In this document: positions 4,808 to 44,513 of the stretch, one piece after another
How the letters are laid out: each line of letters starts with the position of its first letter
Position numbering within the stretch: the stretch's first letter is position 1
Assembly (NCBI GenBank): GCA_963809385.1
Contig: CAWEJL010000007.1
Span: forward strand, 195,305-259,304
DNA length: 64,000 bases
Source: an uncultured Chloroflexia bacterium
Lineage (GTDB): Bacteria; Chloroflexota; Ktedonobacteria; Ktedonobacterales; JADMIN01
Direction: 5' to 3'
Notes under the pieces: model-generated
Seen by the model: only the letters and a program-made list of their open reading frames with translations
What the model was told of the DNA's origin: nothing
Database searches by the model: none
Position numbers and translations under genes: made by a program

Positions 4808-5149
4808 GTGATTGAGATGATTGGGTACGCGAGGCTCTTTCGCGGACTGAGAGTTCCGCCAGAGCATAAACACAGATATGACCGCTTCGCTTCAGATGGG
4901 CATGCCATCGTATTGTGGTACCCGACAGCGCCACTCGCGCGACTCCTCAGAGACATGGACACCCTCGCGCAGGGCCTGCATGGAGACGCGGTAATGCGTG
5001 TCTATTCGGACCATCCAGCGGCGTTGATGGCTATACCTGATCTATGCGCGGCTCGCGGCTATGAGCTACTTCCCGGTCTGCCGCTAGGACAAGGCGAAGG
5101 AGATCAGCGGCCTTTCGGGCGATATTCCTTTGATATTCGCCGCCCATAG
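4808..5149 (+). CDS. hypothetical protein
   Basis: 113-aa ORF with no recognisable motif. A faint TusA-like layout lacks the active Cys. Confidence 0.3.
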   Translation: MIEMIGYARLFRGLRVPPEHKHRYDRFASDGHAIVLWYPTAPLARLLRDMDTLAQGLHGDAVMRVYSDHPAALMAIPDLCAARGYELLPGLPLGQGEGDQRPFGRYSFDIRRP

Positions 5150-13263: not shown

Positions 13264-14972
13264 GCGAAGACGCTCAAGCCGTGGCGCGCCCCACCTGGCG
13301 AGACAAGAGCGCCTCCGACGGCAGCCCACCCGCTACCCGCCGGAACGCGCGTAACTGACGCTTTCCTGAGCGCTGAAGGGCAACTGCTGATTCTTGGCGA
13401 GCCTGGCGCGGGCAAGAGCACGCTGCTCTACCAACTCGCGCAGGACCTCGTCGCACGCGCCAAAGACGATGGAGCGGTCCCAATTCCTGTCGTTTTCGAC
13501 CTGGTCTCCTGGACACAGGCACGCAAGCCGCTAGGAGACTGGATGGTAGACCAGCTCATCCAGACCTGGCAGATTCCTGATCCCATCGCGTGCGCGTGGG
13601 TCAGCCAGCGCGAGATCGCGCCGCTGCTGGACGGATTGGACGAGGTGAGCGAGAGCGATCGCGATGCCTGCGTGGACGCCATCAACCACTACCAGCGTGC
13701 GCATGGGCTCGACCCGCTGGCAGTGTGCAGCCGAACTCAGCAATACCGTGACCTGCATGATCGCCTTGACCTACGTCGGGCAGTCATTGCGCAGCGGCTC
13801 ACGCCCAAGCAGATAGATGCCTATTTAGACGCTGGAAAAGAGAAACTAGCGGCGCTACGCGAGCTGACTCAGGCGAATGGAGTAATTCGTGAGTTGATGT
13901 CGACGCCACTGCTGCTGTGTGTCATTTCCTTGGCATACAAGAACTCTGCGCCGAACTCCATCTTGCGTCCAACTGACGACCTAAAATCCTGGAGACGAGT
14001 CGTCTTCTTCGACTATGTGCAACGAATGCAGGATCATCGTCTTCCAACCAATGCGCAGAGAAAGTCTAGCAACTATTCAGTAGCCGAAATGACCTATTAT
14101 CTGGCATGGCTTGCCAATAACATGCGAACCAACCTCAGAACGGATTTATTTTTCTTTGAACAGTTGAAACTATATGAGTTGTCAGTAATGGGCACGCAAT
14201 TTCACTGGCGATGGAGTTCGATCGTAATGAATAGCATATATCGCCGGGTCTCTGTTTTGTTTATACGCGTTGGGCCACTTAAAGGAGCAATGTATTTATC
14301 ATGGCACAAACTATGGCGCGTTTTTATGATCGGAATAGCATGGGGTTTGTTCATTGGGTTAGCAGCAGGAGTGGTCTTGGGACTCTCCATTGGATTGTTT
14401 GGAGGGGTATTGGTAGCGCTGTCGTTTGCTGGATTTACTTGGCTCTCTGATGGGCCAATCACAGTGGTTGAAATGGATGAGCGCGATATAAGCACCCCAA
14501 AGATGGCTCAGTGAGTTCACTTCGGATTGGATTCCTTTCGACAATTCCTGCTTTCTTAGTCACCACTATTACTTTTAGCTCATTACTTACGGTGCTCCAA
14601 CTAGCATCTGAAGTGATAGTCAAATATCTTACTAATGATATATCTTCAATGAGTCAACTAGATGCGCAGGATATTTTCTTACTGTTAACGTTGAATGCAG
14701 TCGGAGCTCTGGTACCTGGCCTAATTTTGGGTGTGAGTGCTGGATGGAGGAATGGGTTGGGAAGCTTTATTGGATATCGAGTTACTTTGCAAGCGCTGAT
14801 CCGCCTGCGCCTCATGCCTGCTCACCCCGTCGCGTTTCTCGACTTCGCCGCCGAGCATGTCCTGCTGCAGCGCGTCGGTGGCGGCTACCGCTTCATCCAC
14901 GGGCTGCTGCTGGACTACTTTGCCGACCAGTGGCCCGCGCTCTCCGCGCATCCGCCCGCGCGCAAGGGATAG
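13264..14972 (+). pseudogene. NACHT/STAND P-loop NTPase with internal multi-TM segment, lacking a start codon and split by a frameshift
   Basis: Walker A GEPGAGKST (13396-13422) and Walker B LLDGLDE (about 13621-13647) are present. The C-terminal motif LLQRVGGGYRFIHGLLLDYFA is in ORF 14511..14972. There is no ATG, GTG or TTG between the TGA at 13261 and the Walker A. The frame changes at about 14505-14514, in the middle of the TM region. Confidence 0.6.
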
Positions 14973-15158
14973 CGGATTGCCAGAGGCGCCTTGGCGCAAG
15001 GATTGCCACTCTCGCCGCGCGCAGCCGGAATGAGGCGTGAGACCACGTTGCGGTCTATGTTTGGGCGTTCGTCGTCGCCATGCCAACAGGCTCGGCGCCC
15101 AGCGCGCGGCCATGCCGAGGCGCCGTGTCACCTGCTGGCAGAGAAAGGACAGTTCCAG

Positions 15159-30808: not shown

Positions 30809-31278
30809 AAATATCACCTCTCCCGTTCGTTGTGGCGTTACTTCCCCAGGCGATCCCTGCCCTACGCAGCCTGACGCCGCGCGTCTGATGGCGCGCGGCG
30901 TTTGTGGGCGCGCGCTCCATGCGCAAGGGCCCTCGGCGAGTGTAGCCTTCCTGGCTTTCCGCCGCGCTCACAGTCCGCTCACAGAACGCTTGTGGCGCCT
31001 CGCGTCCGCGAGATGGCTGTGAGATCCGTTCGTGAGGGGCGTACATAGAGGAGAGCGCGGCCTTGGAGGGCATACCAGACGCCACAGCGGCGTCACAAAG
31101 CGATCACAGCGCGTGCTCGACGCGGACTGCGACATGCGCCGTGCGGCCACGTATAGTAATCCTGAAACGCGCGCGGGACATCACAGCGCGGCGCCGATAT
31201 TCAAGGGAATGCGGCCCTGGTCGCTGGCGCGCTCCTTATCTACCGCTCACAATCATGTATAAGAAAGCTGGCGTGGCG

Positions 31279-32266
31279 ATGTCTTCTGAGACGCGGGGGC
31301 CGGTGGGCGTCCTGCTGATGGCCTATGGCTCACCCAACAGCCTCGACGAGGTGTTGCCCTACTATACCGATGTGCGCGGCGGGCATGCCCCGTCGGCTGA
31401 GCAGCTCGCGGTCGTCTACGATCACTATGCCCGTATCGGCGGCCCCACCGGACTGCTGGCGATTTCCGAGGCGCAGGCCGCCGCGCTCCAGGCGCGCCTG
31501 GACGCCGCCGCGCCCGGCGCCTACCGCGTGTACCTCGGCATGCGCCACTGGCGCCCGTTCATCGCGGACACCGTCCGCCAGATGGCGGCGGATGGCGTCC
31601 GTGATGCGGTAGCGATCGCGCTGGCCCCCCAGGATTCGCGCATCAGCGTCGGCGGCTACATCGCCAGCGTCGAAAAGGCGCTCGATGCGCTGGCGCAAGA
31701 GGCGGGCGCGGAAACAGCCGACAGGCGAGACGCCCGCCCCGGCGATCCGCTTCACCTTCGTGCGCTCCTGGCATGCTGAGCCGCACTTTCTCCAGCTGCT
31801 CGCGGAGCGTGTGGTCGTGACGCGTGAGCGCGCCTTCTCGCCGGCGGAGCACGACGTGGTCCACGTCATCTTCTCCGCGCACAGCCTGCCAGAGCGCATC
31901 CTGACCTGGAACGATCCCTACCCCGCCGAGCTGCGCGCGACGGTGGCGGGCGTCACCCAGCGGCTGGGGCTGGATGAGACGCGGTGGACCTTCGCCTACC
32001 AGAGCGCGGGCCGCACGCCGGAGCCGTGGCTGGGGCCGTCCATTCAGGAGGTCATCCCGCAATTGGCGGCGCGCGGCGTCTCGGCGGCGCTCGTCTGCCC
32101 AGTCGGGTTCGTCGCGGACAATCTGGAGATTCTCTATGACATCGATATCGAGCTGCACGATCTGGCGGCGCGGCAGGGCTTCCATCTGGAGCGCATCGCC
32201 ATGCCCAACGCCGCGCCGCTGCTGATCGAGGCGCTCGCCAGCGTTGTCCAACATGCCGCGCTGTGA
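31279..32266 (+). pseudogene. hemH: ferrochelatase, one frameshift as sequenced
   Basis: The N-terminal half (VGVLLMAYGSP...MRHWRPFI) is in frame 1. The C-terminal half (IRFTFVRSWH...FSAHSLP...VCPVGFVADNLEILYDID) is in frame 2. The junction is at about 31700-31745, near a CGCCCGCCCCGG run. Confidence 0.85.
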
Positions 32267-32959: not shown

Positions 32960-32992
32960 GTCCCCGCTCTACAGGGCGGGGACGTGTATTTG
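32960..32992. terminator. bidirectional intrinsic terminator
   Basis: Perfect 8-bp stem GTCCCCGC / GCGGGGAC (32960-32983). It is flanked by GTGTATTTG on the plus strand and CTTTTCTT on the minus strand. It sits between convergent transcription units. Confidence 0.6.
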
Positions 32993-33159
32993 TCCTATGA
33001 CACCTAGCCAGACCTGGCGCTAGCTGAGAGGCGCGGGCCACGGCGAGACGCAAGTCGAGCCGCCGTAGCTCTATAGATGTCCTCTCGAAAGAGTGAAACC
33101 TCGGCTGGATGGGCTAGAAGAATGCTGCCAGAGAGTACACCACACGCATCTGAAGCGCT

Positions 33160-34203
33160 TTAGCCTTCAACGAGCGGAAGCTCAAGCTCCTCAGTTACCA
33201 TGCCCATGATGACCTCACACTGCTCGCGAGTTTCAACAAACGCACGCACGCACGCCGTACGCCTCTGAGTGATGTGTGACGCGGACTTGAAGGCGTCCCA
33301 GCGGCGCGCAAGTTGCTGTCGCTCGCTCCATTGGCGCTCCGGGTCGCGACTGCGGCGCTTGTCCACCTCCTCCCAGGCGAGGTAATCGCGCCAGAGGTCA
33401 CGCCCCTCTCCTTGAGTGAGTTCCTTACGTAAGGCTTGTTGAAATTGCGGGAGACGCTCATGTTGCTTGAGCAGCTTGCTGAGCGCAGCGTCAATGTCTC
33501 GCTTCGGCACAAAGGAGTGGCGCAGTTGGTGGACATCATCAGCCTCGCGTCTCGCTAGCAAGTCAGGGACTGCGCGTGAAGCAAGAACGTCATCATACCA
33601 GATGTCTAGTCCCGCAGCCTGGCTGATGACATGTTCGCTCTCATCCCCTAGCTGCACATGGTAGAGGAAGTTGCTTAGCGCATCACGGTCGTGTTCGACA
33701 TCTCGCAGCAAACCTTGCAGGACCAGTCTCCGGTTAAACTCATCAGGAGCGGATTGGCGAGGCAACGCGCCAGGTTCTGATGGAACCCGCGTACTCAAGC
33801 CAAGGGCACGCAGGAGACCGTCACGAGCAGGCTCGTAGGCGCGGGTAGCGTCGTAGCGTTGGAGCGGACCCCAGAGCACGGGAATCTCTTCGTTGCGGGT
33901 GGCCGCCATCACAATCGGGATGACACCCAGCATACGCCCCGCATTCACTTCATGGAGCGCGGTATTGACCTCATCCTTGACCCATTTCGAGGCGACCGAC
34001 GCTGGCGTCATCACCAGCACGAGCCATTGGCGGCCCTCCAGCCCCTCGCTGATCTTCTGAACGAAGTTGTTTGAGGTAATAGCCCGACTATCCACCCAAA
34101 CATCTGCGCCTGCCGCTTCCAGGTCAGCTACCAGGCGAGTGGTGAAAGCGTCCTCTTCCAGGCTGTGGTGATGTGAGACGAATACCCGAACCTGGTCTGC
34201 CAT
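33160..34203 (-). CDS. TIR domain-containing protein with uncharacterised about 210-aa C-terminal domain
   Basis: The N-terminus reads VRVFVSHHHS...GADVWVD...WLVLVMTPASVASKWVKDEVNTAL, with TIR beta-A, BB-loop-like and SxW..E motifs. GC is lower than in the flanks. Confidence 0.75.
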   Translation of the reverse strand: MADQVRVFVSHHHSLEEDAFTTRLVADLEAAGADVWVDSRAITSNNFVQKISEGLEGRQWLVLVMTPASVASKWVKDEVNTALHEVNAGRMLGVIPIVMAATRNEEIPVLWGPLQRYDATRAYEPARDGLLRALGLSTRVPSEPGALPRQSAPDEFNRRLVLQGLLRDVEHDRDALSNFLYHVQLGDESEHVISQAAGLDIWYDDVLASRAVPDLLARREADDVHQLRHSFVPKRDIDAALSKLLKQHERLPQFQQALRKELTQGEGRDLWRDYLAWEEVDKRRSRDPERQWSERQQLARRWDAFKSASHITQRRTACVRAFVETREQCEVIMGMVTEELELPLVEG

Positions 34204-34388
34204 CTGCCAGCCCTCTCAACATGTCGTCCCTGTCTACCTGGCTCTGATTGTACACCAGACACACATAGCTTGCTGCGCTATCCAAATGCTGCCATACTGC
34301 GAGAAAATGCTGAACGGCAAGAAGGTAGACTTGCACATATCGCAGGCATCAACATCACGTTCAAGCAAGCCCCGAAGGCCAAGGCTAC

Positions 34389-34444
34389 GGCGAATGTGCC
34401 GGGGCAGTTGCCGCTGTTAGATGAATAGACAGGAAGCGAGATAG
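34389..34444 (+). promoter_or_regulatory. conserved leader module, copy 1 (upstream of the DUF4177-like gene)
   Basis: GGCGAATGTGCCGGGGCAGTTGCCGCTGTTAGATGAATAGACAGGAAGCGAGATAG is homologous to 34684-34742. Confidence 0.45.
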
Positions 34445-34654
34445 GTGGCAGACCAGTGGGAATATGTGGTCGCGCAGGTTAAAGCTACGGACGCTGGGAA
34501 GCTCAGTGGGTTCCTCACCGTGCAGGGCATGAGCGGCTGGGAAGTTGTGAGCATCACGCCCATGAAGGAACGCCATTACATCCTAAGCCAGAGCCAACGA
34601 ACAATGAGCGAAGTCGAGGAAATCCTAGTGCTCTTCAAGCGCCGCAAGCCCTAG
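34445..34654 (+). CDS. DUF4177-like small protein
   Basis: GTG start. 69 aa: MADQWEYVVAQVKA...GMSGWEVVSITP...LVLFKRRKP, matching the DUF4177 pattern. Confidence 0.6.
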   Translation: MADQWEYVVAQVKATDAGKLSGFLTVQGMSGWEVVSITPMKERHYILSQSQRTMSEVEEILVLFKRRKP

Positions 34655-34683
34655 CTCATTGTCAGGTTCAAGAAAGCTTCAAA

Positions 34684-34742
34684 GGCGGACGTGCCAGGGC
34701 AGTTGTCGCTGATGGTCGACGAGTAGACAGGAGACAAGTCGG
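34684..34742 (+). promoter_or_regulatory. conserved leader module, copy 2 (upstream of the zinc-ribbon gene)
   Basis: GGCGGACGTGCCAGGGCAGTTGTCGCTGATGGTCGACGAGTAGACAGGAGACAAGTCGG aligns along its length with copy 1. Confidence 0.45.
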
Positions 34743-35162
34743 ATGGCAAAGCACTGTACGAACTGTGGGCATGAACTTCGGGACACGGACAAGTTCTGCG
34801 CGGAGTGTGGGACCTCTGTGGGAGGTGCTGTAATTCAGACACCGCCGACGCAGTACGAGTATTGCGAAATAACCTTTGGGGACATTCGTGAGGGCTTGTT
34901 CGCTTCGGGGCGCTTTCGGGCTGAAGCGAGTGGACCCTATGGCAGGCGAACTGTGGCGGAAACGGAAAGGTGCAAAGGGGTATCCTATCAGGAGGGGTTG
35001 CAGATATTTACCGGGCCATCCGATCGTTGTGCGGACATGCTCAATGCATTTATGAGGTCACTAAGTGCAGACGGCTGGGTCATGCAGCCCGCCACTGGGC
35101 AATTCTGGTGGCAACACAGGTATCAACGCCCAGTGAAGGTAGACCCCGGTCGCTTATCATAA
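34743..35162 (+). CDS. zinc-ribbon protein with DUF4177-like C-terminal module
   Basis: CTNCGHELRDTDKFCAECG is followed by QYEYCEI...SADGWVMQP...WWQHRYQRP. Confidence 0.55.
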   Translation: MAKHCTNCGHELRDTDKFCAECGTSVGGAVIQTPPTQYEYCEITFGDIREGLFASGRFRAEASGPYGRRTVAETERCKGVSYQEGLQIFTGPSDRCADMLNAFMRSLSADGWVMQPATGQFWWQHRYQRPVKVDPGRLS

Positions 35163-35368
35163 GCTTCGCTCCCGCCAACGCCACAGAACGCTCAGGATTA
35201 CCTCCTCTTTGTTCTACAGCAAAGCGCAGAAAGGTGAAGCAGATAGCCAGTGATCAGGCTCGGTCCAGCGGAGCATCCACCGCAGCCCGCCTGTTCAACC
35301 TTTTGCAGATTTGCTCTAGGCAGGAGGAAAGAGTCGCGCGAGGCTGAAAGAGAAGAAAACAACTGGAG

Positions 35369-35391
35369 AAGCGCCGCAAGCCCTAGCTCAT
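35369..35391 (+). repeat. orphan copy of the DUF4177-like gene's 3' end
   Basis: AAGCGCCGCAAGCCCTAGCTCAT is identical to 34637-34659 (codons KRRKP-stop). No intact ORF lies upstream of it. Confidence 0.7.
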
Positions 35392-35538
35392 CGTTCTTTA
35401 CGCAAAGGCCCCTACCCGCTTTGGGTGGGGGATTTAGACCGTTTGTGCGAAAATGCTTGCCGGGAGCAAAGGTGTAAGCGTTTTGAGCAACGGTTTGAGC
35501 AGGTTGTCGGGAAGCCGAAATCCCGGAATATTTCAGGA

Positions 35539-35613
35539 TGGAGCCGATGGTCGGGCTCGAACCGACAACCTACGGTTTACAAAACCGTTGCTCTGCCATT
35601 GAGCTACATCGGC
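35539..35613 (-). tRNA. tRNA-Thr (anticodon UGU)
   Basis: Hand-folded cloverleaf: acceptor GCCGATG/CATCGGC, D-stem GCTC/GAGC, anticodon stem ACGGT/ACCGT with loop TTTGTAA, T-arm GTCGG-TTCGAGC-CCGAC, and an encoded CCA. Confidence 0.9.
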
Positions 35614-36776: not shown

Positions 36777-36992
36777 CGCTCCACTCCTTGACTCACGGCC
36801 TTGCCACGTTGTTCCAAATCATGGCGTTTCGTTCAGTCAGCGAGCCCGGCAAGCGAGTCTGGCACGTTGGAGCGCGTTTCACGGGCCTCGCTTGTTTCAA
36901 GTGTACACGCAGGTGATGCGATGCGCTACCCCAGCGCGTTGGGGTAGCGCCTGTCTGGCGATGCCGTTAGAGGCGCGCCCGCGAATGGCCGC

Positions 36993-37874
36993 TTACCCCG
37001 CCCGCGTGAAGGCCGACACTACACAGGCCGCCGTCACCGCCAGCCGACCGCCCGGCGCGGCTGCCGCCACCGCGCGCGCCGCTTCGCGAGGCGCGTCCTC
37101 TCCGGTAGCGCGGTGCGGCGTCATCTCCGCCAGATCGGCCAGCGCCTCGCCGTCCAGCGCCAGCGGGAAGGTCACGGCGCGCTCGCTGGCCAGGCTGAAC
37201 GCGGGGGCCAGCGCGTCGCGCAGCCGGGCGGACTTCTCCGGCTCTGGCGCCAGCAGCGACGGCAGCGCCGCCCGCGCCTCCGCCAGATGCTCTGGCGCGG
37301 GCGTCACCACCAGCAGCAGCCCGCCCGGCGCCACGGTCCGCGCCAGCTCCGGCGGGTTGCGCGGCGCGAAGATCACCAGCGCGGCGCCGATACCCGCGTC
37401 CGCAAAGGGCAGTTGGTCCCACGTATTGGCGACGAACAGCGACGCGCCCGCGCCGGGATAGCGCCTGCCCGCCGCCATGCGGACCGCGTCGCGCGCCAGG
37501 TCGAAGCCGTAGAGCCGCCAGCCGCCCGCGCGCACGTCATCCTCCAGCGCGCTTGCGAGATGGCTGAGGTAGTAGCCCTCGCCGCAGCCGCAATCCACCA
37601 GCGCCCGCGCCGCCAGCGGCAGCCGCGCGCCCGGCCCGCGCAGCCACGCGCCCACCTCCTCCGCCAGCGCCTCCGCCAGCGGCGCATACCACCCGGCGTC
37701 GAGGAAACGCCGACGCGCGCGCAGCATCTCCGCGCTATCGCCATGCGCGCGCGTCGGGCGCAGCAGGTTGACGTAGCCTTGCCGCGCGCGGTCGAAGCTA
37801 TGCCCGCGCGCGCAGACCCAGTCGCGCTCACCGGGCATCAGCGGCTCCCCGCAGTGCGGACAGCGCAGGTCCAT
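36993..37874 (-). CDS. rlmA: 23S rRNA (guanine-N1)-methyltransferase RlmA family
   Basis: N-terminal zinc motif MDLRCPHCGEPL...CARGHSFDRARQGYVNLL plus SAM-binding motif DCGCGEGYY. Confidence 0.75.
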   Translation of the reverse strand: MDLRCPHCGEPLMPGERDWVCARGHSFDRARQGYVNLLRPTRAHGDSAEMLRARRRFLDAGWYAPLAEALAEEVGAWLRGPGARLPLAARALVDCGCGEGYYLSHLASALEDDVRAGGWRLYGFDLARDAVRMAAGRRYPGAGASLFVANTWDQLPFADAGIGAALVIFAPRNPPELARTVAPGGLLLVVTPAPEHLAEARAALPSLLAPEPEKSARLRDALAPAFSLASERAVTFPLALDGEALADLAEMTPHRATGEDAPREAARAVAAAAPGGRLAVTAACVVSAFTRAG

Positions 37875-37989
37875 CGGCCCGCCCCTCTCGCGTTCCTCGT
37901 ATCCCAGGCCGAGGAGGCGGCCTTTGCGGCGGAAAGTCTCTTGCCGCAAGGTTCACCCACCTGGGATTCACCCGCCCAGACACGTCACA

Positions 37990-38027
37990 GGCGCGCTCCC
38001 CGATCCCCACAGGATCGAGCGCGCGCC
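37990..38027 (-). terminator. long GC hairpin downstream of rplI (possible terminator, no U-tract)
   Basis: Arms 37990-38006 and 38012-38027 are near-complementary. Confidence 0.3.
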
Positions 38028-38073
38028 CGTAACATGCTTTGGCTTTTGGCGGCTCGCCAGTCTGGCGGCCAGC

Positions 38074-38580
38074 CTACTCCTCAGCGGCCCCGGCATCCTC
38101 AGACGCCGCAATCGCGCCCGCTGGAACGGCCAGTTCGGAGGAGATGATGTTGACCTTGACCTTCGCCTCGTGCTTCGCGCTGATCCGCACGGGCGCCTCG
38201 AACGATCCCAGCGCGCGCAGCGGCTCCTTGAGCGCGATGCTGCGGCGGTCAATCGTGATGCCCTCTTGCTCGTGTAGCGCGTTGGCGATGTCCTGCGAGG
38301 TGACCGAGCCGTAAAGGCGGTCACCCTGGCCCACGCGCACGGCGAAGGTCAGCGTCACATTCGACAGGCGCTCCGTCAGCGTCGCGTCCGCGGCGTCCTG
38401 CTTCTCCACCCTGCGTTTCGCGGCGGTGACACGGTCGTTCAGCGTCGCCATCGCGGCGGCGCTGGCCGGTGTCACTAGCTGGCGCGGCAGCAGGTAGTTG
38501 CGCGCGTAGCCCGCGGCGACTTCTTTGATCTCGCCGGGCTGCCCCAGCCCTGGCACCTCGTGCAAAAGAATGACCTTCAT
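38074..38580 (-). CDS. rplI: 50S ribosomal protein L9
   Basis: MKVILLHEVPGLGQPGEIKEVAAGYARNYLLP is the canonical L9 N-terminus. Confidence 0.9.
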   Translation of the reverse strand: MKVILLHEVPGLGQPGEIKEVAAGYARNYLLPRQLVTPASAAAMATLNDRVTAAKRRVEKQDAADATLTERLSNVTLTFAVRVGQGDRLYGSVTSQDIANALHEQEGITIDRRSIALKEPLRALGSFEAPVRISAKHEAKVKVNIISSELAVPAGAIAASEDAGAAEE

Positions 38581-39080
38581 CGTTTCGCTTCTCGCTCTCT
38601 CTCGCCTTGGACTGCGCCCCGCTCGCGCGCGCCCCCACATCTCGGAGGCTCGGGATATACGCGCGGGCCGGATTGATGGCGCACGCCCTGAAAGTATACA
38701 CGGCCCGGCGTGGCCCGGCAAGCGCCGCCCGCCAGAGCGGCTATGGCTAGCCCACCTGGACGCCTGCGTATTTGTGCGTATTTTTTGTATTCAGCAAATT
38801 TTCAGGAATGGCGCCCTCTTCCTTCAGGTTGACTGGCTAAGATAGAGCAATGGCAGTAGCCTCCCGGCGTCCCGCCCCACCGGCCTCGATGACGCGGCCG
38901 CTTCCTTCCCCAGCGGGGCGCCCGGATGGCTCGTTCAGCGGCCAGCGGCGCGGCTATTACCGTGAGCGACCGAAATGAAGCGTGAAAAGCCCTGAGAATG
39001 TGGCGACGAAACACACACCACTCCAGCGCGCTGGATGTATCGAGTGGCGCGGGAGTGGTACTAGAGGAGTGTCTTGATCT

Positions 39081-40562
39081 ATGCTGGAGCCGCGACAGAC
39101 AAGTGCTACCCCACCCGATGCACTGACAACGGAGCGCAACGGGCAAGCCCCGCTCCAGACCGAGGCGCGCGGATCGCTCAAATCCAGCCCGCCGCGCGAC
39201 CTCGATGATCTGCTCGAAATGGACGACCTGGACGACGAGTCGCTGGAATCCGCCAGAAAACCGCGCCGCTGGTGGCTCGTCGCCGCCAGCGGCGCGCTGG
39301 TGGTTGCGGTGATCGCCGGCTTTCTGGTCGTGCGCTCGCAGAACGCGAAGGCGCCCGTCACCTACCAGACCCAGACCATCGCGCAGGGCAATCTGGCCCT
39401 GACCGTCAGCGGCACTGGCCCTGTGCAGGCCGCGCTCTACAACCTCAATTTCACCGCCAGCGGGCGCATCGCCGAGATTGACGTGCAGGTCGGGCAGACC
39501 GTGAAGGCTGGGCAGACGCTCGCCAAGCTCGACACCACCTCACTGCAGGATTCGCTCAACCAGGCGCAATTGCAGGCCAACTCCGCCTACTACCAAGAGC
39601 AGCAGGCCATCAACAACTGCAATACCGCCAAGAGCCCGCCGCCCGACTGCGTGGCGCTGGCGCAGAACCAGTACGCCGCCTCGCTGCAGCAGCTTCAGAC
39701 AGCGAAGGACAATCTGGCTGGCGCGACGCTGAAGGCCACCCACGCCGGCATCATCACCGCTATCAACGGCAGCGTCGGCGGCACGCCCGGCAGCGGCTCC
39801 GGCAGCGGCTCTTCCTCATCCAGCGGCGGTTTCATCCAGATCGCTGACCCCACCAGCCTGCAAGTGGCGGCGAGTATCAACGAGACGGACATTGGCGGCG
39901 TCACCAATGGCCAGCAGGCGACCTTCACCGTCACCGCCTACCCTGGCAAGATCTTCCATGCGACCGTCACGTCAATCTCGCAGGTCGGGGCGAGCAGCTC
40001 AAACGTCGTCACTTATCCCGTGACGCTGAGTGTGGACATGTCGCGCCTCCTGGGCGTCAACCTCTATACTGGCATGACCGCCAGCGTCACGATTATCAAG
40101 GAGCGTCGCGTCAATGTGACGCTGATTCCCGCTAGCGCCGTGACCTTCGCGCGTGCGGCGGCCAACGCCAACGCCGGCGGTTTCCTGACCCGCACGCAGG
40201 TGACGAACGCCCTGACTCAGTCAAGGCAGATGATCACCACGCTGGAGCAGCAGAACCCGCAGATCACCGCTGATTCGCCCTCCGCCGCCTGGGCTCTGGA
40301 GCGCAGTGGTGGCAAATGGGTCATCAAGCCGATCGTCATCGGCCTCAGTTCTGGCTCATTCGACGAGGTCCTGTCGGGTCTCAACCCTGGTGAGGTGGTG
40401 ATCACCGGCGAGACCAATGGCACGATCACCACGAGCTCTAGCACGACGACCGGCGGCGGCGCTGGCGGCGGCGGGCGCTTCGGCGGCGGCGGCTTCGGCG
40501 GCGGCGGCTTCGGCGGCGGCGGCGCTGGCGGCTTCACTGGAGGGGCGGCCAATGACGCCTAA
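39081..40562 (+). CDS. efflux transporter periplasmic adaptor (HlyD/MacA family) with Gly/Phe-rich tail
   Basis: One TM helix, coiled-coil and lipoyl-like regions (ASGRIAEIDVQVGQTVKAGQTLAKLD, LKATHAGIIT). The tail reads GGGGRFGGGGFGGGGFGGGGAGGF. Confidence 0.8.
   Translation: MLEPRQTSATPPDALTTERNGQAPLQTEARGSLKSSPPRDLDDLLEMDDLDDESLESARKPRRWWLVAASGALVVAVIAGFLVVRSQNAKAPVTYQTQTIAQGNLALTVSGTGPVQAALYNLNFTASGRIAEIDVQVGQTVKAGQTLAKLDTTSLQDSLNQAQLQANSAYYQEQQAINNCNTAKSPPPDCVALAQNQYAASLQQLQTAKDNLAGATLKATHAGIITAINGSVGGTPGSGSGSGSSSSSGGFIQIADPTSLQVAASINETDIGGVTNGQQATFTVTAYPGKIFHATVTSISQVGASSSNVVTYPVTLSVDMSRLLGVNLYTGMTASVTIIKERRVNVTLIPASAVTFARAAANANAGGFLTRTQVTNALTQSRQMITTLEQQNPQITADSPSAAWALERSGGKWVIKPIVIGLSSGSFDEVLSGLNPGEVVITGETNGTITTSSSTTTGGGAGGGGRFGGGGFGGGGFGGGGAGGFTGGAANDA
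40481..40525 (+). repeat. 15-bp tandem repeat x3 inside the adaptor gene
   Basis: CGGCGGCGGCGGCTT occurs twice, followed by CGGCGGCGGCGGCGC. It encodes the GGGGF repeats. Confidence 0.85.
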
Positions 40563-41397
40563 CGCTACCAGCGTAACCAGCGCGAATGGCGCCACGCCCG
40601 GCGATCCGCGCCCGCGCGTCGGCGTCCCCGCGATCTCTGTGCGGCGCATCTCCAAGGTCTACCGCCTCGGCCAGACGCATGTCGCGGCGCTGCGCGACGT
40701 CTCGATCGAGATCCAGCGCGGCGAGTTCGTGGCCATCACTGGCCCGTCAGGCTCCGGCAAATCCACGCTGATGAACCTGCTCGGCCTGCTCGACCGTCCC
40801 ACCAGCGGTGAATACTGGCTGAACGGGCGTGAGGTCGGCTCGTTGCCCGCCGACGCGGTCGCGGATATCCGTAACCGCAGTATCGGCTTCGTCTTCCAGG
40901 GCTTCAACCTGCTCTCGCGCGCCTCGGCCCTGGCCAATGTGGCGCTGCCGCTAGTCTACGCCGGTGTTCCGCGCGACGAGCGCGAGCGGCGGGCGCGGCG
41001 GGCCTTGCGCGCCGTCGGCCTGGGCGAGCGGCTACATCACAAGCCTACCCAGCTTTCTGGCGGGCAGCAGCAGCGCGTGGCCATCGCGCGGGCGCTGGTC
41101 AGCAGCCCCACCTTGCTGCTGGCCGATGAGCCGACTGGCAACCTCGACACGCGCACCAGCGAGGAGATCATGGCGATGCTTGGACGCCTCAACGCGCTCG
41201 GTCTGACCGTCGCGCTGGTGACGCACGAGCCGGATATCGCGGCCTACGCTCCGCGCCAGATCGCTTTCCGCGATGGTCGCATGATCCACGACAGCGGCGC
41301 CCCGATCACGCCGCTGGTAGGCGAAGCGCCCCCGCCAGAGGCGGCGGGCGACGGCGGGCGCGATGGCGCCTTTCGGATTCGGGAGGACCCTCTATGA
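40552..41397 (+). CDS. ABC transporter ATP-binding protein (MacB/LolD-like)
   Basis: Walker [10 protein letters not shown], signature [15 protein letters not shown] and Walker [10 protein letters not shown]. The start overlaps the adaptor gene's stop. Confidence 0.9.
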
Positions 41398-42728
41398 GCA
41401 AGGCGCCGCTCTCTATTCCGCTCGCCGCGAAGACCCCACGCGCGGGCGCCGCGCCGGGCAAGGCCAGCCAGACATCACGTGGCCGCCGGGCGCCAGCCCG
41501 CCGGGGCCTGCTGCTGGGCTCGAGCCTCGCCAGCGCGTGGGAGGCGCTGCTGGCCAACCGCCTGCGCTCGCTGCTGACGGTCCTCGGCGTGATCGTCGGC
41601 GTGGCCGCCGTGATCGCGGTGGTGACGCTGACGCAGGGCACGAGCGCTGTGCTAAACGCGCGCGTGGCCAGCCTGGGCACGAACGTGCTGACGATCATCC
41701 CTGGCTCGTCCGGTGGCGCGGGCGGCGTGCGCGGCGGCGCGGGCTCGGTCCAGTCACTGACGCAGGCCGACGCCGACGCCATCGCCTCTTTGCCGCATAT
41801 CACCGGCGTCAGTCCCGTCATTGGCGCCTCCGAGCAACTGGTCGCGGGGTCGCAAAACTGGAACACCCGCGTCCAGGGCGTCTATCCCAGCTACCAACAG
41901 ATCGCCAACTGGCAGATGTCCGAAGGCTCATGGTTTAGCGATTCTGATGAAGCGAGCGCGCAGTCCGTCGTGGTGCTGGGCCAGACCGTCGTCGCCAACC
42001 TGTTCACCTCCACTGGGACCGATCCGCTGGGCCAGACGGTGCTCATCAACGGCTCTAGCTATACCGTTGTCGGCACGCTGAAATCACAGGGGACGGTGGG
42101 CTTCGCCAACCAGGACGACGTCGCGTTCATCCCCTTCGCTACCGCCAACGCGCGCATCAACACCAGTCAGTACGTCAACCAGATCCAGGTCCAGGTGGAT
42201 AACGCGAATAACGTCGCCTCCACGCAGCAGGCGGTGACCGCGCTGCTGGCGCAGCGCCACCAGATCGCCTCTGGCGCGGCGAACGACTTCTCCGTGCGCA
42301 GCCCGACGCAGTTCGTGCAGACCGCGCAGCAATCGGAGCAGACGCTGGCTTTCCTGTTGATCGGTATCGCCGCCATCTCGCTGCTGGTCGGCGGCATCGG
42401 CATCATGAACATCATGCTGGTCTCGGTCACCGAGCGCACCCGTGAGATCGGCATTCGCATGGCGGTCGGCGCGCGCCGCGCCGACATCCGCAACCAATTC
42501 CTGGTGGAGGCGCTGACGCTGAGCGGCGTGGGCGGGCTGCTCGGCGTGACACTGGGGCTGACGGTTGGCCTGGCGTTGACCCGCGCCTTCTCGCTGCCCT
42601 TCGTGCTGAGCCTGGCGGCGATTGCGCTGGCGGTGGGCGTCAGTGTGGTGATCGGCGTTGTCTTCGGCTTCTACCCGGCGCTGCGCGCGTCCCGGCTCGA
42701 CCCAATCGTCGCGTTACGCAGCGAATGA
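41394..42728 (+). CDS. ABC transporter permease (MacB/FtsX family)
   Basis: MacB_PCD-like periplasmic domain plus a C-terminal FtsX-type 3-TM bundle (GIGIMNIMLVSVTERTREIGIRMAVGA). Confidence 0.85.
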   Translation: MSKAPLSIPLAAKTPRAGAAPGKASQTSRGRRAPARRGLLLGSSLASAWEALLANRLRSLLTVLGVIVGVAAVIAVVTLTQGTSAVLNARVASLGTNVLTIIPGSSGGAGGVRGGAGSVQSLTQADADAIASLPHITGVSPVIGASEQLVAGSQNWNTRVQGVYPSYQQIANWQMSEGSWFSDSDEASAQSVVVLGQTVVANLFTSTGTDPLGQTVLINGSSYTVVGTLKSQGTVGFANQDDVAFIPFATANARINTSQYVNQIQVQVDNANNVASTQQAVTALLAQRHQIASGAANDFSVRSPTQFVQTAQQSEQTLAFLLIGIAAISLLVGGIGIMNIMLVSVTERTREIGIRMAVGARRADIRNQFLVEALTLSGVGGLLGVTLGLTVGLALTRAFSLPFVLSLAAIALAVGVSVVIGVVFGFYPALRASRLDPIVALRSE

Positions 42729-42783
42729 CAAGGAAACCTGCGCAATGGTTCGCGTTTCATCCAGGGCTTTCAAGCCCATGCGC

Positions 42784-42848
42784 CCGCGCGCCAGCCATTC
42801 ATGGCCGCGACCGCCGATACCGCCCCTAGCCGGCCATTCATGGCCGCG
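42784..42848. repeat. REP-like palindromic element family 1, two copies
   Basis: GCCATTCATGGCCGCG cores lie at 42794-42809 and 42833-42848. Confidence 0.65.
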
Positions 42849-42875
42849 CCCCTGGACAAAGGCAGGTGAGGAGTT

Positions 42876-43751
42876 ATGAGCGCGCTCGATAGAAATATCT
42901 CACGGTTCGCCGTCCCCGATGACGCGCGTGAGCGGGCCAGCCAGCCCGCGCCCGCGCCCGCGGCCTGGTGGTATACCCTGGCGTACGTCGAGACCCCGCT
43001 GCGCGAGCAGGCGCTCACCGATGACGACCTGCGTGATCTGGTGGAGACGCTACGGGCGCGCAATCTGCCACTGCCCGCTGAGCTAGCCTCGCCGCGCGCC
43101 AGCGCCCGGCGCGCCAGCGCCAGCGACCCGCTGAGCGGCGCCCGCTACATCTGGGCGTTCTCGTCGCTGCGTGACGCGCTGCTGGCCGCGCGCGCTAACC
43201 GCCGCTCCGATTACCACTCCTACCCGCAACCCGCCAGCTTGCGTGAGGCGTCGATTGACCGTCTTTACCGCCGCTTCCCGCTCGACGTGTTCCCGCGCGC
43301 GAGCGTCATTCTCTTCTCCGGCGCGACGGTCTGCCCCGATCCGCTGCTCTGCCCCGACCCGGCTTCCGGATCGCTGGCCGCTGAGCTGGCGGGCGCGATG
43401 GGGTCTGAGCTTTGGGAGCGCTACACGCTCTGCGGCTTCCGCCAGGGCGCGTCGCTCGTGCGCGTCGCCTCCTCCGATCGCTGGGTGCGCATGACGCCGC
43501 GCGCGCTCGAAGACGCCTGGGCCGCCGCCGAGCGTTACCTTCGCGCGCTGCCCGCTCCATCCATCTCAGCGGGCGCCACGCCGCCGGATGTGCGCGATGA
43601 GCGCCACGAGCCAGGCGACATGGAGACCGCCGCTTTCCAGGCGCTGCTCTGCGCCCTGACCGGCGCGACCACCAACAACGATTTAGCGAAGGCCCCGATC
43701 CGCGCGTCACGCGCGCCGGAGCCCCGTGTACGACGAAATAGGCAAGGATAG
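42876..43751 (+). CDS. hypothetical protein
   Basis: 291-aa ORF with coding-like composition and no known motif. Confidence 0.45.
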   Translation: MSALDRNISRFAVPDDARERASQPAPAPAAWWYTLAYVETPLREQALTDDDLRDLVETLRARNLPLPAELASPRASARRASASDPLSGARYIWAFSSLRDALLAARANRRSDYHSYPQPASLREASIDRLYRRFPLDVFPRASVILFSGATVCPDPLLCPDPASGSLAAELAGAMGSELWERYTLCGFRQGASLVRVASSDRWVRMTPRALEDAWAAAERYLRALPAPSISAGATPPDVRDERHEPGDMETAAFQALLCALTGATTNNDLAKAPIRASRAPEPRVRRNRQG

Positions 43752-43760
43752 AACACACTC

Positions 43761-44513
43761 ATGAGATCACCGCTGCTGACCTTGCGCGCGCTCCAGACGC
43801 GCGCGATCTGGCCGGGCCGCGCGCTGGCCGCCGCTGGAACACTGGCGCTGGCCGCGCTGCTCACCGCTTGCGGCTCCGCTTCCGCCAGCGGCGCGGGCGC
43901 CCAGGCGACGGCGACCTGCCCGCCCACTGTTGCCTTTTCCACCGTCACTGGCTCCATCACCGCGCTCGGCAGCGGAACGATGACGGTGAAAGATTCATCG
44001 GGCGCGAGCGTGACTGTGGCGCTCGCCTCCACTACACGCTACACCCTGATGACGGCGGTGTCCGCGACCAGCCTGACCGCGGGAACGCCCGTCCTGGTGG
44101 TCACCGACACCAACGCCACCTCCGCGCGCAGCATTCGCGTGCTGTCAGGGACAGCGGGCGGTGGCTTCGGTGGTGGCGGCGGCGGCTTCGGCGGCGCGCG
44201 CGGCACGCCACGCGCTGGCTTTAATACCGCCTGCGCCCGAAACTTCGGTGGCGGCCAGGGCGGCGCGCCGGGCGGGACATCGGGCGGCTTCCAGGGCCTG
44301 CGCGGCACGGTGGACTCCGCCACCAGCTCCAACCTGACCTTCGACGACGCGCAGGGCCAGACCTATTCCGTCGCTATCACCTCTTCCACCACGATCGAGA
44401 AGACGGCAGCCGGTCAGGCCAGTGACCTCAAGGTGGGTGAGAACGTGACCGCCTCCGGCCAGAAGACATCCGGCCAGGTCGCCGCCCGCAACGTCACCAT
44501 CCAGGCCTCGTAG
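43761..44513 (+). CDS. secreted lipoprotein with two DUF5666-like beta modules and a Gly-rich linker
   Basis: Lipobox LLTACG. Repeats are GSITALGSGTMTVKDSSGASVTV and GTVDSATSSNLTFDDAQGQTYSV. The linker reads GGGFGGGGGGFGG. Confidence 0.55.
   Translation: MRSPLLTLRALQTRAIWPGRALAAAGTLALAALLTACGSASASGAGAQATATCPPTVAFSTVTGSITALGSGTMTVKDSSGASVTVALASTTRYTLMTAVSATSLTAGTPVLVVTDTNATSARSIRVLSGTAGGGFGGGGGGFGGARGTPRAGFNTACARNFGGGQGGAPGGTSGGFQGLRGTVDSATSSNLTFDDAQGQTYSVAITSSTTIEKTAAGQASDLKVGENVTASGQKTSGQVAARNVTIQAS

Follow-up and report, generated by a model that had tools for sequence, protein, structure and literature searches.

The window analysed here is a stretch of 64,000 nucleotides from an uncultured Chloroflexia bacterium of the Ktedonobacterales (contig CAWEJL010000007.1, positions 195,305 to 259,304 of the forward strand), and our subject is a block at 32993–35538 whose largest gene encodes a 347-residue protein with an N-terminal TIR domain and a C-terminal helical bundle. 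The block has a G+C (GC) content of 56.8% against 66.1% window-wide, and only 0.5% of equal-sized sliding windows are this low. GC content at third codon positions is 0.64 in the TIR gene and 0.59 in a zinc-ribbon gene of the same block, compared with 0.84–0.89 in nearby housekeeping genes; the low values of both measures therefore mark the block as DNA that is foreign in composition and codon use. It lies between a GC-rich hairpin with T-runs on both strands (32960–32992, the hairpin itself at 32960–32983), which scores on both strands in a consensus terminator scan, and a tRNA-Thr(UGU) gene with encoded CCA (35539–35613, minus strand; ARAGORN; Rfam tRNA, 73.7 bits) that forms its right edge. 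A first reading of the window made from its letters (the sequence-only reading) had described such a low-GC block between a bidirectional terminator and tRNA-Thr, and the measurements bear it out. Three convincing open reading frames (ORFs) are found between hairpin and tRNA, at 33160–34203 on the minus strand and at 34445–34654 and 34743–35162 on the plus strand, and the block is flanked by genes for beta-propeller and small basic proteins.

The TIR gene (33160–34203, minus strand) is an intact ORF with a Shine-Dalgarno-like GAGAGGG 5' of its ATG. The N-terminal TIR domain that had been proposed was recovered at residues 7–128 (33820–34185, minus strand; Pfam TIR_2, E 1.2e-19), with scores above the cut-offs for both PF13676 (71.4 bits, cut-off 28) and PF01582 (35.1 bits, cut-off 21.3). 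When compared by phmmer with Acinetobacter AbTIR (7uwg/8g83), the best solved relatives, the segment KWVKDE aligns on DWTNYE, so that W74 (codon 33982–33984) and E78 (codon 33970–33972) correspond to W204 and E208 of the WxxxE motif, in agreement with the earlier claim that a glutamate occupies the catalytic position. Of the closest 120 TIR homologues, 119 retain E78 and 116 retain W74. Both WxxxE residues of AbTir-TIR bind a substrate analogue, and E208A serves as an inactive control (J Biol Chem 2023; PMC10641520). The 347-residue protein is thus a predicted nicotinamide adenine dinucleotide (NAD+) hydrolase. Three full-length homologues, P0002, P0003 and P0004, share 52–67% identity with it. 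The TIR half on its own is 55–78% identical to more than 100 proteins with other C-terminal domains (P0005–P0120, some of them Ktedonobacterales records), and its partners comprise at least seven domain types, including FGE-sulfatase, by far the commonest, Mrr-type nuclease, TPR, FHA, beta-helix, SCP2 and ParA-like domains. What these proteins share is the TIR cassette, and what varies is the C-terminus.

The C-terminal all-alpha domain (residues ~153–340, ~190 residues; 33184–33747, minus strand) is predicted by AlphaFold as a seven-helix bundle (predicted local distance difference test, pLDDT, 86.3; predicted template modelling score 0.80). As modelled, it is a confident fold without a known relative: Foldseek searches against PDB and BFVD gave no match (best E 0.04, TM about 0.3), and no match was found in Pfam, NCBIfam, PADLOC, PHROGs or PDB sequences. 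A PDB profile search, viral contigs, and tblastn against plasmids and phages were likewise negative, as was Pfam for every member of the family. The suggestion that this region lies outside known families has therefore held in every library searched. When 1.84 billion representative proteins were searched exhaustively with HMMER and 5.8 billion clusters by two word-indexed searches, the family came to about eight proteins among roughly 15 billion: the window protein, the TIR fusions P0002–P0004 and the stand-alone helical proteins P0121–P0124, of 226–269 residues. The exhaustive pass alone returned P0002, P0121, P0123 and P0124, together with one repetitive spurious match. The window domain matches P0121, P0122, P0123 and P0124 at E 5e-72, 6e-54, 1e-40 and 1e-12, respectively, and the family alignment contains 13 invariant columns.

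The neighbourhoods of these relatives point to a restriction-modification partner. The stand-alone genes P0121 and P0122 start 3 nt past the stop of a same-strand gene for a ~1080-residue type IIG enzyme (PADLOC PDLC03630, E 9e-71; Pfam N6_Mtase, Eco57I and MmeI_Mtase), an arrangement that is intact on three contig sets. The TIR fusions P0002, P0003 and P0004 are divergent from a neighbour whose N-terminus matches another type IIG subfamily (PDLC03621, E 7e-34 and 1.5e-27) and whose visible fragment carries a PD...EAK nuclease-like motif. On the far side of the fusions lies either a phage-type DNA primase of 921–931 residues (phrog_1829, E 4e-71; NrS-1 polymerase helical domain) or an AAA_25 primase-helicase (phrog_906, E 3e-40). 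In all five lineages with readable neighbours a type IIG gene adjoins the helical domain. As read from their genes, the three TIR-fused loci sit on replicating mobile elements, and the defence or mobile setting first proposed for the window gene is indeed where relatives of the TIR-helical protein are found. In a further locus, L008 (6768–9997), the type IIG gene 5' of a stand-alone helical gene is split into ORFs of 669 and 342 residues, with a DDE transposase close by on the downstream side; the two-gene module seems to be in decay here.

Homology between the window and the TIR-fused loci is confined to 32993–34304 (blastn from ~33016 to 34304; an nhmmer profile extends it to 32993). At the 5' side of the TIR gene it takes in a conserved upstream region (34204–34304, minus strand) that contains, in the four-locus alignment, a TACAAT -10-like box and a GCAGTATG(A/G)CAGCA block. 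It ends at the far edge of this region: 34304 corresponds to position 703 of L001, where the type IIG gene starts at 669, ~34 nt further. No homologue of either type IIG subfamily was found by tblastn anywhere in the 64-kb window, and on the same negative result a remnant of the enzyme surviving in 34305–35538 was rejected.

On the 3' side of the TIR gene, the window retains the first ~90 nt of a non-coding element of ~330 nt (32993–33077, minus strand; nhmmer profile positions 2–92, E 4e-8; seen also by blastn and alignment). The profile was built from four full copies, one each in L001 (1853–2199) and L002 (1669–1997) and two in L004 (1792–2131 and 2925–3270). In each of the three TIR-fused lineages the element lies 3' of the TIR gene; its start is also present at the contig ends of the stand-alone loci L009–L012 (in L009 at 4893–4925). 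Blocks within it, such as ACGGTTCGGCTG.CGCCTCACCGTGG and CGACRATGAGC, which occurs twice, are more conserved than the adjoining coding DNA, and its 5' part contains two hairpins with a few compensatory changes. Rfam returned tRNA only for the window elements and the related loci, and no family for this element. The window copy breaks off exactly at the terminator hairpin, which bounds the foreign DNA on the left, with no homology to the mobile-element loci beyond 32993; the hairpin probably ends the upstream host transcript and the TIR transcript alike. In sequence terms, the window holds a 1.3-kb fragment of the module that is truncated on both sides and consists of the gene for the TIR-helical protein with its upstream region, plus the initial ~85 nt of the element.

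The tRNA-Thr gene at the opposite edge of the block is the sole tRNA found by ARAGORN in the window. It is encoded on the minus strand and its 3' end therefore faces the block, at lower coordinates, as had been noted. The sequence-only reading took this arrangement for a tRNA-associated island, which stands in part: the block abuts the tRNA 3' end and is of deviant composition, but it has no integrase, and its far boundary shows no direct repeat of the tRNA 3' end. One of the TIR-fused loci, L004, likewise terminates at the 3' end of a tRNA and has both the acceptor sequence and a downstream motif in common with the window; this implies that a tRNA-Thr-like site is used by a fuller version of the element, the TIR gene there being in the opposite orientation. 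A degenerate, inverted partial copy of tRNA-Thr is located at 35485–35520 (plus strand), ~20–55 nt past the tRNA 3' end, with blocks of 12/12 and 10/10 nt aligning to the tRNA sense strand; it runs from the D-arm to the T-arm and has lost the anticodon loop. It is also found in L004 (6341–6368, plus strand), and is thus kept in two distant loci; it may be left over from an old recombination event, or be a structure for processing or termination.

Comparison of the tRNA site across genomes was less informative. Scanning genomes with ribosomal protein L9 retrieved one related genome, a Ktedonobacterales metagenome-assembled genome (L016). It is syntenic with the window over 36990–44503, and the synteny is broken at 36990, before the block is reached; the synteny ends at an RlmA-like gene, and there is no tRNA at that break. 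An exact 51-nt tRNA-Thr pattern had no match in metagenomes, and a 28-nt pattern of the 3' end (T-arm and acceptor) was found on nine metagenome contigs that have the tRNA alone in common and no common flanks. On an unrelated metagenome contig, L035, 33 nt of the tRNA-Thr 3' end are repeated in direct orientation ~40 nt away from the intact tRNA (1882–1914 and 1953–2029), a classic integration scar of the kind absent from the window.

The two small genes of the block are transcribed divergently from the TIR gene. Both had been described as of DUF4177 type, which holds at best for the one: the 69-residue protein (34445–34654, plus strand) is borderline, scoring 24.8 bits against a cut-off of 25 for Pfam DUF4177 (PF13783), and the 139-residue protein (34743–35162, plus strand) has an N-terminal zinc ribbon (Zn_Ribbon_1, E 7.6e-9) followed by an uncharacterised C-terminal domain. 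An assignment of the latter to DUF4177 was rejected, as neither the protein nor 13 relatives gave a match and hhalign returned a probability of 1.3%; the likeness amounts to short motifs (WEY.., GWE and KFRRP). A 28-nt leader is repeated directly, at 86% identity, 5' of each small gene (34389–34416 and 34684–34711, plus strand); these are its only two sites in the window, against a chance expectation of 0. A 26-nt repeat of 34637–34662, 96% identical, at 35369–35394 (plus strand) is a relic of a DUF4177 gene 3' end (…KRRKP*), with an in-frame stop 13 codons upstream. A 14-nt inverted repeat, 93% complementary, is formed by 34192–34205 and 34443–34456, where the divergent TIR and DUF4177-like genes both start with (A/G)TGGCAGACCAG (M-A-D-Q); it could be due to chance or mark a recombination junction.

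About 20 homologues of the zinc-ribbon protein were found, and none of the three loci that were read has an adjacent TIR gene. The closest, P0126 (58% identical; locus L027), is followed by an 89-residue DUF4177-like gene that ends ...LFKRRKP*, as the 69-residue gene does. L027 has no TIR gene; its contents include AAA_25 genes and a fragment that weakly resembles a terminase (phrog_2, E 0.002). Integration at a tRNA 3' end was considered for this locus and rejected, as its tRNA-Arg points the other way. By tblastn, neither small protein is encoded in any of the seven TIR-homologue loci, and PADLOC gave no match for either. Since the pair recurs without TIR in L027 and is absent from the TIR loci, it is best regarded as a mobile-element-associated unit of its own and not as a conserved TIR partner. 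The proposal that the TIR gene and the two small genes form one partner set finds no support in these loci, where the conserved neighbour is a type IIG gene that the window lacks.

We propose that the window carries a fragment, orphaned from its partner, of a TIR module that serves abortive infection and is linked to restriction, a combined account to which we assign a probability of roughly 0.55 and in which the functions are putative. The block is best explained as a mosaic of mobile-element cargo lying against the 3' side of tRNA-Thr and not as a self-contained three-gene system. In related bacteria the parent module has the order type IIG gene, divergent TIR-helical gene, ~330-nt non-coding element and phage-type primase, and the gene neighbourhoods suggest that the type IIG enzyme is linked functionally or physically to the helical domain. 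This domain may serve as a restriction-associated adaptor or sensor that, upon a signal of infection, lets the TIR domains assemble; the assembled TIR would then cleave NAD+ and arrest the infected cell, as a second line behind restriction. With the restriction partner lost or replaced in the window, the TIR-helical gene would be an orphan, either firing alone or idle, and the zinc-ribbon/DUF4177-like pair a separate mobile-element gene pair that landed alongside. It is conceivable, as a tentative extension, that the seven-helix domain is a dedicated type IIG partner that reports the state of the enzyme, for example its inhibition by a phage anti-restriction protein or stalled cleavage, and that the TIR-fused form turns this signal into NAD+ depletion.

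Several observations weigh against this proposal. The type IIG gene beside the TIR fusions is visible for 111–223 residues only, after which the contigs end, and P0123 and P0124, whose surroundings are either too short or uninformative, stand outside the five-lineage count. As the three TIR-fused loci are mutually syntenic, the association amounts to two independent architectures, with two enzyme subfamilies, not five, and the adjacency could reflect the clustering of genes in defence islands. At the locus itself, no integrase is present in or around the block, where the TIR gene is the only ORF of at least 200 residues; no direct repeat of the tRNA-Thr end (att) occurs within the window, and no empty-site allele of the tRNA-Thr locus was seen among the relatives and contigs retrieved. 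The TIR part of the predicted model is poor (pLDDT 50–65). In pairwise comparisons with the three fused homologues, the ratio of non-synonymous to synonymous substitution rates (dN/dS) is 0.12–0.16 for the TIR part and 0.21–0.36 for the C-terminal part, values that lie well below 1 and speak for the proposal, but that say little on recent selection in the window lineage because dS is near saturation. Finally, the host tolerates the TIR gene without its partner, which implies either that the partner is not needed to keep TIR silent or that the gene is inactive.

The chief rival is that the gene is a complete single-gene abortive-infection system, whose helical bundle is its own sensor or oligomerisation domain (compare the coiled coil of AbTIR and TcpB) and whose restriction neighbours are no more than co-residents of an island. 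In its favour, a conserved upstream region belongs to the gene itself, which is divergent from, not co-directional with, the restriction gene; it is intact in the window without any restriction gene, and the attachment of the same TIR, at 55–78% identity, to many C-terminal domains is as expected of modular single-protein sensors. However, the effector-less stand-alone helical proteins are translationally coupled, across a 3-nt gap, to a different type IIG subfamily, which is hard to explain without a functional tie, and the presence of a type IIG gene in five of five lineages with readable neighbours argues in the same direction; we consider this rival possible, though unlikely. Somewhat less probable still is that the gene no longer has a function and is an inert remnant of a mobile element that has decayed. 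In favour of this, both sides of the module are cut short, neither the partner gene nor any core gene of the element is left, the nearby relic of a DUF4177 gene attests to local decay, and TIR-part dN/dS is slightly higher in the window comparisons (0.12–0.16) than among the restriction-linked copies (0.06–0.09). Decay is difficult to reconcile with a gene that keeps its full length, start, Shine-Dalgarno-like site, catalytic motif and 13 of 13 family-invariant residues, with the conserved upstream region, and with dN/dS values that are all far below 1.

A role outside defence would make the gene either an addiction module, acting by post-segregational killing, or part of a lineage-specific repertoire of TIR fusions that filamentous Ktedonobacteria use in cell death or kin conflict. 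An eLife paper of 2020 reportedly discusses repertoires of this kind in multicellular bacteria as conflict systems; the sharing of the TIR half among more than 100 proteins with FGE-sulfatase, Mrr, TPR, FHA and other domains, Ktedonobacterales records included, would fit, as would the carriage of homologues on mobile elements. We regard this role as improbable, given that tolerance of the gene without the restriction partner weighs against killing by simple partner loss and that every specific neighbour is of a classic anti-phage gene type. The idea that TIR and the two divergent small genes constitute a new three-gene defence system draws on their presence in one low-GC block, on the duplicated leader common to both small genes and on the near-identity, in inverted orientation, of the first 12 nt of the TIR and DUF4177-like genes. 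It is disfavoured as very improbable: both small proteins are missing from all seven TIR-homologue loci, the pair occurs in L027, where TIR is absent, and the neighbours of other zinc-ribbon homologues are unrelated, PADLOC recognises neither protein, and homology to the TIR loci stops at 34304, short of the small genes.

TIR proteins with uncharacterised partner domains are common, and the window gene by itself would be a modest find. The added value lies in an uncharacterised helical domain that, in the readable loci, is found only beside type IIG enzymes, whether alone or fused to TIR. This link suggests a way in which restriction is coupled to abortive infection in mobile elements of Chloroflexota, and the window offers a natural orphan allele, in which the TIR gene is tolerated without its partner. 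If, beyond this, the seven-helix domain does report on the state of the enzyme, the loci would represent an undescribed restriction-guarding TIR system, possibly working with the ~330-nt non-coding element. Our literature search found no report linking type IIG enzymes with TIR effectors in the sense seen here.

Two further features of the window lie apart from the block. The ferrochelatase gene (31063–32266) is in two frames, an ORF at 31063–31779 covering Pfam positions 2–146 and another at 31685–32266 covering 145–315, and is either a frameshifted pseudogene or an assembly error. A second patch of markedly low GC (13543–14972; GC 0.45–0.53 at 14000–15000) contains a 323-residue ORF with an LLDGLDEV motif and a hydrophobic C-terminus, for which neither Pfam nor PADLOC gave a match. 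The motif is reminiscent of the NACHT/STAND Walker B, and the ORF may be a fragment of another acquired immune-type gene.

Among known systems, Thoeris ThsB resembles the window protein in being a TIR with a catalytic glutamate, the matches being weak (PF08937, 23.3 bits; PADLOC ThsB profiles, E 2e-6 or weaker, and partial). The block contains no gene for ThsA (a SIR2, Macro, TM or SLOG effector), the NCBIfam ThcB4 model scores 34.9 bits against a cut-off of 220, and the C-terminal domain of the window protein is unrelated; assignment of the locus to Thoeris was rejected on the absence of ThsA and the ThcB4 score far under its cut-off. The best matches of solved structure are AbTIR, TcpB and PdTIR (E 1e-4), with which FxSH and WxxxE align and which likewise combine TIR with a helical non-TIR region. 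Their domain order, however, is reversed, TIR being N-terminal in the window protein, and they have been studied as virulence factors, outside any context of restriction-modification or mobile-element modules. PADLOC profiles for TIR-SAVED, TIR-APAZ/SPARTA, TIR-NLR, retron RT-TIR and PDC-S66 match at E 5e-11 to 5e-3, through the TIR part alone (residues 2–134). In contrast to CBASS/Pycsar, SPARTA, TIR-NLR and retron RT-TIR systems, the window protein is without a SAVED or STING, APAZ, NTPase or reverse transcriptase domain and has no pAgo or cyclase neighbour; a SAVED, APAZ, NLR or RT fusion was rejected, since every PADLOC and NCBIfam match stops at the TIR domain.

Closer analogies are conceptual. 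PARIS is reported by Rousset et al. (2022, PMC9122126) to be an abortive-infection system that is triggered by anti-restriction proteins and carried in mobile-element hotspots. What it shares with the proposed module is the concept of a second-line system that acts when phages counter restriction; it differs in consisting of an ABC ATPase and a Toprim nuclease, and has no sequence or domain relation to the window protein. PrrC-EcoprrI comprises an anticodon nuclease that resides inside a type Ic restriction-modification cassette and probably serves as a fallback once restriction has been countered. The proposed module differs from it in that the effector is a TIR and not an NTPase-anticodon nuclease, the enzyme is a single-chain type IIG and not a type I enzyme, the linkage is a putative one, drawn from gene neighbourhood, and the partner is absent in the window. 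Nevertheless, as a suicide effector that is genetically tied to a restriction-modification enzyme, PrrC-EcoprrI is the nearest concept to the module of which the window gene appears to be a part.

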